NCBI RefSeq assembly: GCF_003790525.1
Contig: NZ_CP033635.1
Reading direction: 5' to 3' (one strand)
From: Escherichia coli
Lineage (GTDB): Bacteria; Pseudomonadota; Gammaproteobacteria; Enterobacterales; Enterobacteriaceae
Length of the DNA stretch: 64,000 nt
Part shown: one piece after another, positions 3,719-42,885 of the stretch
Numbering within the stretch: the first letter of the stretch is position 1
How the letters are laid out: every line of letters starts with the position of its first letter
Position numbers and translations under genes: made by a program
The notes under the pieces: model-generated
Told to the model about the DNA's origin: nothing
Databases searched by the model: none
The model's input: the letters and a program-made list of their open reading frames with translations, nothing else

Positions 3719-4894
3719 CTACAACCCTAACGCATATTTCAGCGCCTGACGTTTCAACACGCCAGCACGCTCCGCCGCCATTAATCCGAGATTACGCATA
3801 AAACGCAGTGGTGGCAGATTATTGCTGAATCCGGCATAAAACAGATCCATACCGCTTTGCATAATGAAGTTATCCGCCATGCGCCGCATCTGGTAACGCT
3901 TGAGCACAGGATAACTGGCCCACGCTTCGCCGTAGCTGCGGGCGTTCACCAGAACGTCAATCAGGGCATCGACATCACGATAACCAAGATTCACCCCCTG
4001 CCCCGCCAGCGGATGGATGGTATGCGCGGCATCTCCCACCAGTGCCAATCCCGGCTGAACATACTGCAACGCATGGCGACGTGTCAGCGGAAACGCCCCC
4101 GCGGCAAGCGGTGTCACGTAACCCAGACGCGACGGGAAATGCTTCGCGATTTCCGCCTGTAGCTGCGCCATATTCATATTCTGCAACTGGCGAATGCGCG
4201 CCGGAGAGTCATACCACACCAGCGATGCCCAGTTATCAAACAACGGCAGAAACGCACGCGGTCCGTCCGGGGTAAATTGCTGCCAGGTGCTATCGCCGGG
4301 ATCGTTCTCGCACTGTACGCTAATCAACATACACGACTGTGCATACTGCCAGGCATGAACGCCAATTCCCGCCATCTGCCGCACCTGCGAATTTGCGCCG
4401 TCGGCACCAATCACCAGCTTCGCGCGGATCGTTTCACCGCCCTTCAGTTCCAGCTCCTGAAGATCATTATGGCGATGCAGCGCAATCAGCGAGCCTGGCA
4501 CACGTAACGTTACTTTCGGATGCGCTTCCAGCGCCTGCCACAGCGCCTGTTGCAGGACAGTGTTTTCCACCATGTAGCCAAGCAACGGTAGCTTAAGTTC
4601 AGCGGCGTCAAACACCACATGCGCCGTTTCCCACTCCCACGTTTCCAGTCTGCGGTAAGGATGGCAACGCATAGCCTGTACTGCATCCCAGACCCCTAAC
4701 CCTTTAAGCAATGATACCGAAGCCGCACTAATCGCCGAGATCCGCACGTCCGGCTGGCTGTCAGCGACAAACGGTGCAGGTTGGGCATGTTCGATAACCA
4801 TTACCGAAAATCCGTGCTGAGCCAGTCCCAGCGCCAGTGCGCCGCCGACCATTCCTCCGCCGACAATGGCAATTTCCGTTGGTTGATTTGTCAT
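3719..4894 (-). CDS. ubiF: 2-octaprenyl-3-methyl-6-methoxy-1,4-benzoquinol hydroxylase (FAD monooxygenase), 391 aa
   Basis: N-terminal Rossmann motif IAIVGGGMVGGALALGL; ORF may start two codons upstream at 4900 (ATGACCATG). Confidence 0.93.
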   Translation of the reverse strand: MTNQPTEIAIVGGGMVGGALALGLAQHGFSVMVIEHAQPAPFVADSQPDVRISAISAASVSLLKGLGVWDAVQAMRCHPYRRLETWEWETAHVVFDAAELKLPLLGYMVENTVLQQALWQALEAHPKVTLRVPGSLIALHRHNDLQELELKGGETIRAKLVIGADGANSQVRQMAGIGVHAWQYAQSCMLISVQCENDPGDSTWQQFTPDGPRAFLPLFDNWASLVWYDSPARIRQLQNMNMAQLQAEIAKHFPSRLGYVTPLAAGAFPLTRRHALQYVQPGLALVGDAAHTIHPLAGQGVNLGYRDVDALIDVLVNARSYGEAWASYPVLKRYQMRRMADNFIMQSGMDLFYAGFSNNLPPLRFMRNLGLMAAERAGVLKRQALKYALGL

Positions 4895-5039: not shown

Positions 5040-6464
5040 ATGACCAAAAAACTCCATATTAAAACCTGGGGCTGTCAGATGAACGAGTACGATTCATCGA
5101 AGATGGCCGATCTGCTGGATGCCACCCACGGCTATCAACTGACCGATGTGGCGGAAGAAGCGGATGTGCTGCTGCTGAACACCTGCTCAATCCGCGAGAA
5201 GGCTCAGGAAAAAGTCTTCCATCAGTTGGGTCGCTGGAAACTGTTAAAAGAGAAGAATCCAGACCTGATTATCGGCGTCGGCGGCTGCGTGGCATCGCAA
5301 GAAGGCGAGCACATTCGCCAGCGCGCCCACTATGTCGATATTATTTTTGGGCCGCAAACGCTGCACCGTCTGCCGGAGATGATCAACTCCGTGCGCGGCG
5401 ACCGCAGCCCGGTTGTAGATATCAGCTTCCCGGAAATCGAGAAGTTTGACCGTCTGCCGGAACCGCGCGCCGAAGGGCCGACCGCGTTTGTCTCCATCAT
5501 GGAAGGCTGCAATAAATATTGCACCTACTGCGTAGTGCCTTACACCCGTGGTGAAGAGGTAAGCCGTCCGTCCGACGATATTCTGTTTGAAATTGCCCAG
5601 CTTGCGGCTCAGGGCGTGCGTGAAGTCAACCTGCTCGGTCAGAACGTGAACGCCTGGCGTGGTGAGAACTACGACGGCACCACCGGATCGTTTGCCGACC
5701 TGCTGCGTCTGGTTGCGGCGATCGACGGGATCGATCGTATTCGCTTTACCACCAGCCATCCGATCGAATTCACCGACGATATCATCGAAGTGTACCGCGA
5801 CACGCCGGAGCTGGTGAGTTTCCTGCATCTGCCGGTACAGAGCGGTTCCGATCGCATTCTGAACCTGATGGGACGTACCCATACAGCGCTGGAGTACAAA
5901 GCGATCATCCGTAAACTGCGTGCGGCGCGTCCGGATATTCAGATCAGTTCTGACTTCATCGTTGGCTTCCCTGGCGAAACCACCGAAGACTTCGAGAAAA
6001 CGATGAAGCTGATTGCCGACGTCAATTTCGACATGAGCTACAGCTTTATCTTCTCTGCACGTCCGGGTACGCCAGCCGCCGATATGGTTGATGATGTTCC
6101 GGAAGAAGAGAAGAAGCAGCGTCTGTATATTCTGCAAGAACGTATTAATCAGCAAGCGATGGCATGGAGCCGCCGGATGCTCGGCACCACCCAGCGTATT
6201 CTGGTAGAAGGTACATCGCGTAAGAGCATCATGGAGCTTTCCGGTCGCACTGAAAATAACCGCGTGGTCAACTTTGAAGGCACGCCAGATATGATCGGTA
6301 AATTCGTCGATGTAGAAATTACCGACGTCTACCCGAACTCTCTGCGCGGTAAAGTGGTGCGTACTGAAGATGAAATGGGTCTGCGCGTGGCAGAAACGCC
6401 GGAATCGGTGATTGCCCGTACCCGCAAAGAAAACGACCTTGGCGTGGGTTATTATCAGCCGTAA
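5040..6464 (+). CDS. miaB: tRNA-i6A37 methylthiotransferase (radical SAM), 474 aa
   Basis: N-terminus [19 protein letters not shown] plus radical-SAM CNKYCTYC motif. Confidence 0.95.
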
Positions 6465-6616
6465 TTCTCAGGCCCGCCGTTCCGGTGGGCCTTGTTTTTT
6501 CTCTCTTTATCCCCATCTTTATCGCAATGCTTGCGCCTTTTTCCTGTGGCGTGAATAATTTCCTTATAGGCCGGTGAATGTTCAGCTTCCGGCGGCATAC
6601 AGATAAGAGGAACGGT

Positions 6617-8210: not shown

Positions 8211-9089
8211 ATGAGCGACGACAATTCACACAGTAGTGACACGATAAGCAACAAGAAGGGATTTTTCTCCCTGTTACTCAGCCAACTTTTCCACGGTGAA
8301 CCGAAAAACCGTGACGAACTGCTGGCGCTGATCCGTGATTCCGGGCAGAACGACCTTATCGACGAAGATACGCGCGATATGCTCGAAGGGGTGATGGACA
8401 TCGCAGACCAACGCGTCCGCGACATCATGATCCCCCGCTCCCAGATGATTACCCTGAAACGCAACCAGACGCTGGACGAATGCCTTGATGTCATCATTGA
8501 GTCCGCCCACTCACGTTTCCCGGTGATTAGCGAAGACAAAGATCACATTGAAGGGATTCTGATGGCGAAAGACTTGCTGCCGTTTATGCGCAGCGATGCT
8601 GAAGCCTTCAGCATGGACAAAGTGTTACGTCAGGCGGTTGTCGTTCCTGAAAGTAAGCGCGTAGACCGGATGCTGAAAGAGTTTCGCTCTCAGCGTTACC
8701 ACATGGCGATCGTCATTGACGAATTCGGTGGAGTTTCCGGTCTGGTGACCATTGAAGACATCCTGGAACTGATTGTTGGTGAGATTGAAGACGAGTATGA
8801 CGAAGAAGATGATATCGACTTCCGTCAGCTGAGTCGTCATACCTGGACCGTGCGCGCACTGGCTTCTATTGAAGACTTCAACGAAGCGTTCGGCACCCAC
8901 TTTAGCGATGAAGAGGTTGACACTATCGGTGGTCTGGTGATGCAGGCATTTGGGCATCTTCCGGCGCGTGGCGAAACCATCGACATCGACGGTTACCAGT
9001 TCAAAGTGGCGATGGCCGACAGTCGGCGTATTATTCAGGTTCATGTCAAAATCCCGGATGACTCACCCCAGCCGAAGCTGGATGAATAA
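8211..9089 (+). CDS. corC: CorC/YbeX magnesium-cobalt efflux accessory protein (CBS-pair + CorC_HlyC), 292 aa
   Basis: translation matches recalled CorC; conserved position after ybeY. Confidence 0.93.
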
Positions 9090-12126: not shown

Positions 12127-12867
12127 ATGTCTATAGACTGGAACTGGGGTATTTTTTTACAACAAGCCCCGTTCGGCAACACCACCTATCTTGGTTGGAT
12201 CTGGAGTGGTTTTCAGGTGACGATCGCTTTGTCGATCTGCGCCTGGATTATCGCTTTCCTCGTCGGTTCATTTTTCGGCATTTTACGTACCGTTCCAAAC
12301 CGTTTTCTCTCCGGTCTGGGTACGTTGTATGTCGAACTGTTCCGCAACGTGCCGTTGATTGTGCAATTCTTTACCTGGTATCTGGTGATCCCGGAGCTGT
12401 TGCCGGAGAAAATCGGCATGTGGTTTAAGGCCGAGCTGGATCCCAATATTCAGTTTTTCCTTTCATCCATGCTCTGCCTGGGGCTGTTTACCGCCGCCCG
12501 TGTTTGCGAACAGGTACGCGCCGCGATTCAGTCGTTGCCGCGTGGGCAAAAGAATGCCGCGCTGGCAATGGGTCTGACGCTACCGCAGGCTTACCGCTAT
12601 GTACTGCTGCCTAATGCTTATCGCGTTATCGTCCCGCCGATGACCTCCGAGATGATGAACCTGGTGAAAAACTCCGCCATCGCCTCGACTATCGGTCTGG
12701 TAGATATGGCGGCGCAGGCGGGTAAATTGCTCGATTACTCAGCTCATGCCTGGGAGTCGTTTACCGCCATTACGCTTGCGTATGTGTTGATTAACGCGGT
12801 TATCATGCTGGTAATGACGCTGGTTGAACGTAAAGTTCGCCTGCCCGGCAACATGGGGGGCAAATAA
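12127..12867 (+). CDS. gltJ: glutamate/aspartate ABC transporter permease, 246 aa
   Basis: ATG 12127 with GGAG upstream; polytopic membrane protein. Confidence 0.93.
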
Positions 12868-37471: not shown

Positions 37472-38425
37472 GTGGATAGTAATAATCAAATTGAAACCTG
37501 TTTAAGCAGAAAGTCGTCAGAAGGTAAACCACAAATATTTACAACCTTACGAAATATTGATCTTAACCTTCTGACTATTTTTGAAGCTGTATATGTACAT
37601 AAAGGGATCGTTAATGCAGCGAAAGTGCTTAATCTGACACCCTCGGCAATCAGTCAGTCTATTCAGAAACTGCGCGTTATATTCCCTGACCCATTGTTTA
37701 TTCGCAAAGGCCAGGGTGTCACTCCTACCGCATTTGCGATGCATCTACATGAGTATATCAGTCAGGGCCTTGAGTCCATTCTTGGCGCGCTGGATATCGA
37801 AGGAAGCTATGATAAGCAACGAACGATAACTATTGCGACCACCCCCTCGGTCGGAGCCCTGGTCCTTCCTGTCATCTATCGGGCGATTAAATCTCACTAT
37901 CCGCAGCTTTTACTGCGCAACCCACCCACCAGCGACGCGGAAAACCAACTCAGTCAGTTTCAAACCGATCTCATCATCGATAACATGTTTTGCACCAATC
38001 GTACGGTGCAACATCATGTTCTGTTCACCGACAATATGGTGTTAATTTGCCGTGAGGGAAATCCACTACTCTCTTTAGAAGATGACAGAGAGACTATCGA
38101 CAACGCTGCGCATATACTCCTGTTACCGGAAGGGCAAAATTTCAGCGGTCTGCGGCAGAGAGTTCAAGAGATGTTTCCGGACCGGCAAATCAGTTTCACC
38201 AGCTACAACATTTTGACAATCGCTGCACTGGTTGCCAACAGTGACATGTTAGCGATTATTCCCAGCCGTTTTTATAACCTGTTTAGCCGTTGTTGGCCGC
38301 TAGAAAAACTGCCTTTTCCGTCCTTAAATGAGGAGCAAATAGATTTCTCTATCCACTACAACAAATTCAGCCTGCGTGATCCCATCCTGCACGGGGTAAT
38401 AGATGTTATCCGGAATGCATTTTGA
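37472..38425 (+). CDS. ybeF: LysR-family transcriptional regulator, 317 aa, GTG start
   Basis: N-terminal HTH (LNLLTIFEAVYVHKGIVNAAKVLNLTPSAISQSIQKLR); AT-rich coding sequence. Confidence 0.88.
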   Translation: MDSNNQIETCLSRKSSEGKPQIFTTLRNIDLNLLTIFEAVYVHKGIVNAAKVLNLTPSAISQSIQKLRVIFPDPLFIRKGQGVTPTAFAMHLHEYISQGLESILGALDIEGSYDKQRTITIATTPSVGALVLPVIYRAIKSHYPQLLLRNPPTSDAENQLSQFQTDLIIDNMFCTNRTVQHHVLFTDNMVLICREGNPLLSLEDDRETIDNAAHILLLPEGQNFSGLRQRVQEMFPDRQISFTSYNILTIAALVANSDMLAIIPSRFYNLFSRCWPLEKLPFPSLNEEQIDFSIHYNKFSLRDPILHGVIDVIRNAF

Positions 38426-38633: not shown

Positions 38634-39599
38634 ATGAGTAAACCCATTGTGATGGAACGCGGTGTTAAATACCGCGATGCCGATAAGATGGCCCTTATCC
38701 CGGTTAAAAACGTGGCAACAGAGCGCGAAGCCCTGCTGCGCAAGCCGGAATGGATGAAAATCAAGCTTCCAGCGGACTCTACACGTATCCAGGGCATCAA
38801 AGCCGCAATGCGCAAAAATGGCCTGCATTCTGTCTGCGAGGAAGCCTCCTGCCCTAACCTGGCGGAATGCTTCAACCACGGCACAGCAACTTTTATGATC
38901 CTCGGCGCTATTTGTACCCGCCGTTGTCCGTTCTGTGACGTTGCCCACGGTCGCCCGGTAGCTCCGGATGCCAATGAACCAGTGAAACTGGCGCAGACCA
39001 TTGCCGATATGGCGCTGCGTTATGTGGTTATCACCTCCGTTGACCGTGATGACCTGCGCGATGGCGGTGCCCAACACTTTGCGGATTGCATTACTGCCAT
39101 TCGGGAAAAAAGCCCGCAAATCAAAATTGAAACTCTGGTGCCGGATTTCCGCGGTCGTATGGATCGTGCTCTGGATATTCTGACCGCCACACCACCAGAT
39201 GTGTTCAACCATAACCTGGAAAACGTACCGCGTATTTACCGTCAGGTACGGCCTGGTGCAGATTACAACTGGTCGCTGAAGCTGCTGGAACGCTTTAAAG
39301 AAGCGCATCCGGAAATCCCGACCAAGTCTGGTCTGATGGTGGGTCTGGGTGAAACCAATGAAGAAATTATTGAGGTAATGCGCGACCTGCGCCGTCATGG
39401 TGTGACGATGTTAACGCTGGGGCAATATTTGCAGCCAAGCCGCCATCACCTGCCGGTTCAACGTTACGTTAGCCCGGATGAGTTCGACGAAATGAAAGCC
39501 GAAGCGCTGGCGATGGGCTTTACCCATGCTGCATGCGGTCCGTTTGTCCGCTCGTCTTACCACGCCGATTTGCAGGCGAAAGGGATGGAAGTTAAGTAA
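38634..39599 (+). CDS. lipA: lipoyl synthase (radical SAM), 321 aa
   Basis: Cys clusters [12 protein letters not shown] and CTRRCPFC. Confidence 0.96.
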
Positions 39600-39699: not shown

Positions 39700-39903
39700 T
39701 CACTCTTTATGAGAGAGCTTTTCAGCCTGAAGATCAACGTCTGCGCCTTTTTTCGCCGCAGCATCGTCATCATTCATCGCCTTCTTGAACCCTTTAATGG
39801 CCGCTCCAAGGTCTCCGCCCAGCGTACGTAACTTCTTAGTCCCAAACAGCAGAACGACCAGCGCCGCAACTACCAGCAGTTTGGTAATACTAATCTCACC
39901 CAT
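39700..39903 (-). CDS. tatE: twin-arginine translocase subunit TatE, 67 aa
   Basis: full-length match to recalled TatE ([33 protein letters not shown]). Confidence 0.95.
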
Positions 39904-40031: not shown

Positions 40032-40826
40032 TCATAATAATTGCGGCGGCGCAAAGCGACGGTTGTTTAAGACGGGCAGTTGCGCGCGCACCTGACGCAC
40101 ACGTTCGGGCGTCACTTCCGCCATAATGAGTGCAGGCATTTCTGACGCTGCCGCAATGGTGACGCCAAAGGGATCTATAATCCGGCTTTGCCCGATATTT
40201 TTGTTCCCGCACTCCCCCGCCGCCACCATATAACAGGTGGTATCCAGCGCACGAGCGGCAAGCAACGTTGACCAGTGATGCTCTTTGAGCGGCCCACGAA
40301 CCCAGGCAGCAGGAAGTACCAGGATTTCAGCTCCCTGTAATGCCTGTGCCAGCGCCAGCTCTGGAAAGCGTAAGTCATAACAGGTCATCAGACCGACCTT
40401 CATCCCTTCCACCTCCAGTAACGGAGCTATTTCATTACCAGCATCAACATGGCGTGATTCCTGAATGGCAAATGCATCATAGAGATGAAGTTTGGCATAA
40501 CGGGCGACGATGTTTCCTGCCTGTAGCGCCACCAGCATATTCCATGCGCGCCCCGGCGTTGAAGGAACATGAATCGTCAGAATTGTCGTCATCATGTTAC
40601 GTTTACTTTCTCGACGTAAACGTCCGAGGAATTCGCCTTCCAGCAGCTGTGCTGATTTAACCGATAGATCTGCATCATGATCATCACGCGCCAACAATGC
40701 TTCCGGCAGGACAAACAGCGAAACGTCGTTTTCCGCCGCCTGCGCCATCAACGAGGCACAAATCTCAGCGTTCTTTTCCCACACAGATGTCACAGCAAAC
40801 TGTCCTGCGGCAACCAGCATTGCCAC
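40032..40826 (-). CDS. ybeM: CN-hydrolase (nitrilase-superfamily) amidase, uninterrupted ORF of 262-264 aa
   Basis: Glu/Lys/Cys catalytic context visible ([22 protein letters not shown]); no frameshift or stop. Confidence 0.85.
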
Positions 40827-40915
40827 CTCCTCCTGTCAGAGTCGTAAAATTCGCCAACGGCGATTATTCGGCGTTACACTTATCACTCATACAAATCAAA
40901 TAGCAGGATTTTGCA

Positions 40916-41299
40916 GTGTTACAACTTCTTTTAGCAGTTTTTATAGGCGGTGGTACGGGAAGCGTGGCGAGATGGCTGTTAAGTATGCGATTTAACCCGC
41001 TGCATCAGGCGATTCCGTTGGGGACGCTGGCAGCCAACCTGATTGGGGCATTCATCATAGGAATGGGATTCGCCTGGTTCAGCAGGATGACGAACATTGA
41101 TCCCGTGTGGAAAGTATTAATCACCACCGGATTTTGTGGCGGTCTAACAACCTTCTCAACATTTTCGGCAGAAGTGGTGTTTTTGTTACAAGAGGGTCGC
41201 TTTGGCTGGGCATTACTGAACGTTTTCGTCAACCTTCTGGGGTCTTTTGCCATGACCGCACTGGCTTTCTGGCTGTTTTCGGCCTCAACCGCACACTAA
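40916..41299 (+). CDS. crcB: fluoride channel CrcB/Fluc, 127 aa, GTG start
   Basis: full-length match to recalled CrcB; four TM segments. Confidence 0.93.
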
Positions 41300-41302
41300 A
41301 GA

Positions 41303-41337
41303 CCAAAAAAAACCCGCTGATTAAGCGGGTTTTGAAT
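41303..41337. terminator. bidirectional intrinsic terminator between convergent crcB and cspE (AAAAAAACCCGCTGATTAAGCGGGTTTT)
   Basis: stem with A-run and T-run on opposite sides. Confidence 0.75.
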
Positions 41338-41352
41338 TCTTGCTGACGTATC

Positions 41353-41562
41353 TTACAGAGCGATTACGTTTGCAGCAGAAGGGCCTTTGGCACCGTTAGT
41401 GATTTCGAACTCTACGCGCTGACCTTCAGCAAGAGTTTTAAAACCATTAGTCTGGATTGCAGAGAAGTGTACGAACACGTCTTTGCTGCCGTCTTCCGGA
41501 GTAATGAAACCGAATCCTTTGGACTCATTAAACCACTTAACGTTACCTTTAATCTTAGACAT
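41353..41562 (-). CDS. cspE: cold-shock-domain protein CspE, 69 aa
   Basis: [37 protein letters not shown] with RNP motifs; ORF-track upstream extension to 41646 rejected. Confidence 0.95.
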
Positions 41563-41736
41563 CAAAATTACCTTTACATGAAAAATAGACACAAATGCTG
41601 TGTCGGTTACCAGTACACCAATTGTGGTACGCTTTGTCCAGTGCAACTTTACTAAAAAGTGATAAAAGTCGCGTTATTTTTGATGTTAATTATTTTAGTG
41701 GTTGATTTTAAAGAATTTACTAAAACTTCATTTGTC

Positions 41737-42297
41737 TCAAAACTGAAAGCGCATCCAGGCAAAGTACACATTGCCATTGTTGTAGGTACCCGGAATGTAG
41801 GTCATCTGAAACGTCGCGGGGCCATACCCCACAGAGGCCAATGGCAGTAGAACCGGGAGAGGGATGTAATTCCAGTTATCGCGTGCCGTTACGCCAGCGG
41901 TGAATCCCAGGCCTAAATGAAAATTTTCATCTGCCAGCGGTCGCCAGGTACTTTCCCATCCGTATCCGGCAATCGGTTCCCATTTGTTCCACGAGTCCTT
42001 AAATGCCATGGCATACAGGCCATGCCAGTTTCCTTTTTCGTCCCAACGCGACTGACCAAAACCGCCACCCCACGGTCGCTCGTTATAGCGATCGGTTTTT
42101 TCTTTGTCATAGGCAAAACGCGCATGCCAGGTGATGGCAGGAATATATAAATCATAATGTTCTGGCTGTTGCCAGGTTTGTGCAATATTTTCTCTAAACG
42201 TTGTCATCCACTCATCAGCGTTAGCAAAAACTTTACCAACACTGATTAACTGAATAAAAACAAAGAAAAATATAGTGACATATTTACTCACGTTCAT
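41737..42297 (-). CDS. pagP: lipid A palmitoyltransferase PagP (outer-membrane beta-barrel), 186 aa
   Basis: matches recalled PagP incl. signal peptide. Confidence 0.95.
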
Positions 42298-42885
42298 TTG
42301 TGACCATTAAACATTTATCAAAAATCTACTACTAGCATAGCAAAGCTACAATTAACATAACCTTAATAGCCCCAACATAAAAAATAATCTGAATAGCTGC
42401 TCTATTTATTTCCGCTTGTTTAAGTTAAATATTTCCGCACATCGATTAAAGATGATGCGTCGTTTTCTGCGATGGGAATAGTCAAAAAAGAAAAACCAAG
42501 TCTTTTTTGATGACAAAATGCAATCAAGGAAAAATTATTTTATTTTTTAACGAGATACAACAATCATCTTAACGAAGTATATAATATATATCGTCAACCC
42601 ATGCTCATATTAGATTATTTTTTGAGCGCATGGCCGCAGCTAACACCATTGCAATTAACAAATTTGCATCAATCCACCATCAATTTACACACATTATTAT
42701 GTGATATTTGCCAACCGCTAAATATGCGTTTTGTTATCTACGTATAAAAACAGCAACTTCAATGTCTTAATGGCAGTTTTTCTTGATTTTAATCAGCATT
42801 CACCGCCAATTTATTGGGCATATTTTTTCCTTAGTTTTTAGGAATTTTTTATTATTTACTTTGGGGCCTGGAGACAGGAAAAATT
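42298..42885. promoter_or_regulatory. 588-bp AT-rich divergent control region between pagP and dcuC
   Basis: long non-coding AT-rich tract with no credible ORF; contains a tgtttaagttaaat motif (42417-42430) resembling a PhoP half-site pair (weak). Confidence 0.45.

Follow-up and report, generated by a model that had tools for sequence, protein, structure and literature searches.

The window analysed here, a 64,000-nucleotide stretch of Escherichia coli DNA, carries an intact and very probably ancestral allele of ybeM, most likely at positions 40032-40820. This gene encodes a 262-aa protein of the nitrilase superfamily, a predicted amidase for deaminated glutathione (dGSH) belonging to the Nit1-like branch. 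The species normally has ybeM intact, and the genome that is atypical at this locus is that of K-12, not that of the window's strain. The window's ybeM is already known, its exact protein being present in RefSeq and the K-12 pseudogene having been described in the literature.

The ybeM reading frame and its neighbourhood

The six-frame ORF list contained an uninterrupted ORF at 40032..40826 on the minus strand, with 264 aa when read from a GTG. An ATG lies in the same frame two codons further on, at 40820, and gives a product of 262 aa (789 nt including the stop codon); this is the start that RefSeq gives to the identical gene of strain SMS-3-5. The coding strand 5' of ybeM reads ...CAGGAGGAGGTGGCAATGCTG. 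Since the element AGGAGGAGG (40834-40826) overlaps the GTG and is suitably spaced from the ATG, from which 5-8 nt separate it, and since RefSeq uses the ATG, the true 5' end of ybeM is most likely 40820 and the real CDS most likely 40032-40820. The first-pass annotation had placed the gene at 40032-40826; the uninterrupted ORF is present, and the end coordinate was 6 nt too long. The 789 nt were free of frameshift, premature stop and IS, and formed a single 262-aa ORF. The features of the gene are as follows.

40032..40820, minus strand: ybeM CDS, 262 aa plus stop (ORF list, RefSeq start, DNA identity to SMS-3-5 ECSMS35_RS03195)
40821..40826, minus strand: two extra in-frame codons, GTG GCA, probably untranslated (GTG/AGGAGGAGG overlap; RefSeq ATG start)
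40826..40834, minus strand: Shine-Dalgarno-like AGGAGGAGG, followed after 5-8 nt by the ATG (direct sequence reading)
40701..40703, minus strand: codon GAA, catalytic Glu40, aligned to NitFhit Glu54 (translation and DNA)
40620..40622, minus strand: codon CGT, Arg67; its middle base, 40621 (coding-strand G, CDS nt 200), is the base absent in MG1655
40491..40493, minus strand: codon AAA, catalytic Lys110, aligned to NitFhit Lys127
40380..40382, minus strand: codon TGT, nucleophile Cys147 in the TCYDLRFPE motif, aligned to NitFhit Cys169
40359..40361, minus strand: codon GAG, Glu154 in the CYDxRFPE motif (motif position; conserved in the NitFhit and yeast Nit2 alignments)

The ORF list placed the following genes around ybeM.

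38634-39599, plus strand: lipA
39700-39903, minus strand: tatE, flanking ybeM
40916-41299, plus strand: crcB, flanking ybeM and followed by cspE and pagP

K-12 has the same order seen from the opposite direction, pagP-cspE-crcB-ybeM-tatE-lipA. The position of ybeM between tatE and crcB was identical in MG1655, SMS-3-5, CFT073 and EC958. A consensus scan of the ybeM-crcB intergenic region found no sigma-70 promoter, a scan for promoters and terminators around ybeM gave nothing above shuffle expectation, and the ybeM-crcB spacer matched no Rfam family, riboswitch or other.

Some variation was observed elsewhere in the neighbourhood. SMS-3-5 carries an IS5-like element (ISKpn26 family) and a duplicated pagP fragment beside pagP (425-1628 of the extracted locus); unlike in that strain, the window's pagP-dcuC spacer (42298-42885) is a plain 588 nt, as in K-12, so that SMS-3-5 itself is not the source of the window. 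The LysR-type regulator gene ybeF (window 37472-38425, plus strand) is an intact 317-aa ORF, as in MG1655, and is annotated as a truncated or frameshifted pseudogene in ST131 strain EC958 (12308-12832 of the extract) and in stool isolate EcN_Sk (8248-8568). Judged from these sequences, ybeF is another strain-variable pseudogene, two genes from ybeM. The one Rfam match nearby was that of the cspA thermoregulator model to the cspE transcript region (window 41305-41753, minus strand) with 136 bits, as expected for a cspA paralogue and thus not unusual.

Protein family, catalytic residues and likely substrate

The protein matched the CN_hydrolase family PF00795 with an E value of 4.3e-41 and 141.4 bits, against a Pfam gathering score of 23.2, the match spanning residues 5-247 and profile positions 2-255 of 256. 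It also matched the NCBIfam model NF033621 (de_GSH_amidase, "deaminated glutathione amidase") over profile positions 2-260 of 260, scoring 451.5 bits where the curated cutoff is 355. Because of these two scores, the ORF is not a chance ORF. All other nitrilase-superfamily NCBIfam models scored far under their cutoffs. Among them, the Yersinia-type dGSH amidase equivalog NF043013 reached 82.7 bits against a cutoff of 500, and such non-membership is expected for an E. coli-type protein.

Among solved structures, sequence comparison gave as top relatives 1ems, which contains the Nit domain of C. elegans NitFhit (E 1.7e-29), and 4h5u, which is yeast Nit2 (E 1.1e-26); mouse Nit2 (2w1v), an omega-amidase, was also a significant PDB match (E 4.4e-22). 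In the 262-aa numbering, Glu40 (LPEA), Lys110 (AKLH) and Cys147 (TCYD) align to Glu54, Lys127 and Cys169 of NitFhit 1ems. A further conserved residue, Glu154, lies in the RFPE motif; the glutamate of the CYDxRFPE motif is the second conserved glutamate of the superfamily. The codons of all four residues were confirmed directly in the window DNA. Hence both the full-length domain match and the triad positions place the protein in the nitrilase superfamily, in agreement with the first-pass annotation, which had read the gene as a CN-hydrolase with a Glu/Lys/Cys catalytic context.

At the DNA level, the window's ybeM is 100% identical to the SMS-3-5 gene, whose product is WP_001305561.1, "deaminated glutathione amidase". 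At least 40 RefSeq genomes share a 971-base region around the gene with 100% identity. Model score, genomic position (tatE on one side, crcB on the other) and identity to members already annotated all assign the protein to the NF033621 family, from whose known E. coli member, YbeM, the window gene is no different; the lipA-tatE-ybeM-crcB-cspE-pagP neighbourhood is common to both. The Glu-Lys-Cys triad likewise aligned with that of the eukaryotic Nit1 family (mammalian Nit1, yeast Nit2 4h5u, NitFhit 1ems). Compared with this family, the window's YbeM is shorter (262 aa), is without the Fhit fusion and is distant (E 1e-26 to 1e-29), and it does not contain the insertion of yeast Nit2 that splits the alignment into two stretches. 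A ybeM homologue 85% identical in DNA, annotated as "nitrilase-related carbon-nitrogen hydrolase", was observed in UTME-9 (NZ_CP157110.1), a genome labelled E. coli that is probably divergent or of a cryptic clade.

The catalytic activity and the substrate of the window's YbeM are predictions from sequence. With a mechanism taken from the superfamily, YbeM would be a cytoplasmic enzyme in which Cys147 would attack the amide carbon of the substrate, with Glu40 serving as general base and Lys110 stabilising the tetrahedral intermediate; hydrolysis of the thioacyl-enzyme would follow, and ammonia would be released. dGSH, the substrate given in the annotation, is a side-product of transaminases acting on glutathione, and its conversion to 2-oxoglutarate and Cys-Gly (EC 3.5.1.128) would be a metabolite-repair reaction. 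The assignment of dGSH as substrate follows NCBIfam and RefSeq naming and secondary citations; Peracchi et al. in 2017 reportedly assayed the E. coli homologue itself and found dGSH amidase activity. In PMC5714238, mammalian Nit1 and the product of yeast NIT2 are said to be amidases that act on deaminated glutathione, itself described there as a transaminase side-product.

The ORF could instead be intact and active with a substrate other than dGSH, such as 2-oxoglutaramate or 2-oxosuccinamate (an omega-amidase activity) or another small amide. Specificity is not readable from sequence, and both the match to mouse Nit2 omega-amidase and the weak score with the Yersinia dGSH amidase equivalog would be compatible with such a substrate. 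We consider it decidedly unlikely, as the specific NF033621 model was exceeded by about 100 bits and the best structural relatives were of the Nit1 type, not omega-amidases. In addition, a table in PMC8711792 that cites Peracchi 2017 attributes the 2-oxoglutaramate amidase role in E. coli to yafV, a separate gene at another locus and with another substrate. YafV, a Nit2-like 2-oxoglutaramate/omega-amidase, has the superfamily and the metabolite-repair theme in common with YbeM, whereas YbeM matched the amidohydrolase model NF007757 only weakly (61.5 bits, far under the cutoff of 249).

The K-12 deletion and the distribution of ybeM alleles

The first-pass annotation had suggested that ybeM is a disrupted pseudogene in some K-12 annotations, and proposed an alignment with the MG1655 gene, for which an identical and intact K-12 copy would have made the window's gene unremarkable. 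In the NC_000913.3 annotation, MG1655 ybeM is indeed a pseudogene, b4581, of 788 nt. The pairwise alignment gave 98% identity and one gap (column 220), so that the K-12 copy is neither identical nor intact. MG1655 is without one G at CDS nt 200, in codon 67 (CGT, Arg; window 40621), the best insertion position being 199/200. Its frame shifts after Gly66 and reads ...EGEFLGLYGEKVNVT before a stop some 75 codons in. This splits the MG1655 frame into two ORFs, one of 77 aa in which Glu is the sole catalytic residue and one of 187 aa with the Lys and the Cys and without Glu40; in K-12 and a large related lineage, loss of the G truncates the protein at a point after the catalytic Glu and before the Lys. 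In earlier annotations, the locus stood as two genes.

Locus and synteny of b4581 are as in the window, and the two alleles differ by 15 substitutions in 789 nt. When the missing G was restored in silico, three residues of the MG1655 protein differed from those of the window (V33A, V37A, H124R). The deleted gene occupies 4032-4819 of the extracted MG1655 locus and 622-1409 of that of NCTC86, which carries the same 1-bp deletion. The MG1655 ybeM locus has been described as a pseudogene and serves as a neutral chromosomal integration site (PMC4788846).

We have then determined how the two states are distributed among complete RefSeq E. coli genomes, in 5,424 of 5,426 of which the locus was found. 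The alleles were queried with 40- and 41-nt sequences centred on the deletion site, such that every 28-nt megablast seed spans the site and the classes are disjoint. The counts below, across 5,424 genomes, concern the deletion site only.

K-12 deletion junction (40-mer): 860 genomes
Intact, window's allele (T at nt 207): 69 genomes
Intact, common allele (G at nt 207): 3,681 genomes
Intact, CFT073-type allele: 158 genomes
Intact, ST131/EC958-type allele: 567 genomes
Outside these five allele classes (by subtraction): 89 genomes

The site was undeleted in at least 4,475 of the 5,424 genomes (82%; 69 + 3,681 + 158 + 567), and the K-12 deletion was present in 860 (16%). With at least 82% of the complete genomes undeleted at the site, K-12 is the exception. 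The first-pass suggestion that this strain keeps a copy lost in K-12 therefore holds for the intactness of the gene, given the undeleted G and the 262-aa ORF. The 69 matches to the window's own 41-mer could have been taken for rarity of the intact state; this was ruled out, the low number reflecting a synonymous T/G SNP nearby at CDS nt 207, and with three more 41-mers, each specific to one allele, the intact genomes came to 4,475.

Carriers of the deletion extend beyond laboratory derivatives, and include NCTC86 (Escherich's 1885 isolate) and many human or clinical, animal, and water or environmental isolates. Intact alleles were seen in O157:H7, O26, O111, B strains, ST131, CFT073 and SMS-3-5, and this distribution makes the intact state ancestral by parsimony. 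When the whole MG1655 pseudogene was used as query, 1,736 genomes matched at 99% identity or above; among the matches listed, both 788-nt deleted and 789-nt intact sequences appeared at 99.5-99.7% identity, with intact 789-nt alleles 2-3 SNPs from that of K-12 (99.5-99.6% identity). From this coexistence of near-identical deleted and intact alleles it follows that the deletion happened recently, on an allele background of which intact copies are still in circulation.

Other observations were made at the locus in individual genomes. In EC20 (NZ_CP084900.1, 3389125-3390690), ybeM is independently disrupted by an IS1A insertion, the match being in two pieces over 1,566 nt. The stool isolate EcN_Sk (NZ_CP172017.1; Herdecke, Germany) has a K-12-type frameshifted ybeM at 5822-6609 of the extracted locus. 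Its dcuC-lipA region, about 6.4 kb around ybeM, is 99.6% identical to MG1655 and 97.8% identical to ST131 EC958; if EcN_Sk is Nissle-like (B2), its ybeM region would be an imported segment. One or two ybeM-region matches of the complete-genome set fell on records classed as plasmids, which may be F-prime-like captures or errors of assembly or classification.

Constraint on the intact alleles and possible consequences of the loss

The conservation of the intact alleles was assessed by the Nei-Gojobori method. Between the window allele and that of CFT073 or EC958 there were 11-12.5 synonymous and 2-2.5 nonsynonymous differences, with a dN/dS of 0.06; the CFT073-EC958 pair gave 0.07. Such values among intact alleles indicate purifying selection, as would be expected if the gene works. 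In the clade that carries the deletion, MG1655 and NCTC86 differ by two changes, both nonsynonymous (V33A and V37A, in MG1655), which fits relaxed constraint, the numbers being too small to weigh. That the window's ybeM is functional is thus suggested by sequence conservation.

Published work on wild strains has handled ybeM of UTI89 and CFT073 as an ordinary gene (PMC6206680, PMC5320621). ChIP identified ybeM of CFT073 as a target of NsrR, and its expression falls about 3-fold under NO stress (PMC5320621); at least one wild strain thus expresses the intact gene.

These data bear on whether the window's ORF could be intact by chance or recent descent, as an unselected copy of a dispensable gene that is decaying species-wide, the K-12 deletion being the earliest lesion to become visible. 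A lineage making up 16% of complete genomes has lost the gene with no obvious cost, there is at least one independent IS1 insertion (EC20), and MG1655 tolerates insertions at ybeM (PMC4788846). Set against this are the low dN/dS between intact alleles of distant lineages, the undeleted site in most genomes and the near-universal presence of the locus, which leave species-wide decay very improbable indeed. An annotation or sequencing artefact in K-12, by which there would be no real strain difference, is ruled out by the 1-bp gap in the MG1655 reference together with the exact 40-mer junction in 860 independently assembled genomes, and PGAP independently called the gene "frameshifted" in NCTC86 and EcN_Sk.

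An intact, selected ybeM is therefore the reading that we retain for the window. As for the deletion, which is fixed in a natural lineage that has been successful (860 of 5,426 genomes), the loss could be adaptive or compensated rather than neutral hitch-hiking, a speculative proposal that we regard as unlikely. If it were true, dGSH repair would be naturally deficient in K-12 and its relatives, and strains like that of the window would be the proper wild type for studies of glutathione damage repair.

For strain comparisons based on MG1655, the distribution of alleles means that an intact ybeM should not be flagged as a gain. K-12 derivatives are natural ybeM nulls, and work on metabolite damage derived from glutathione or on amidases of the nitrilase superfamily that is done only in K-12 misses YbeM, which most wild E. 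coli, the window's strain included, encode.
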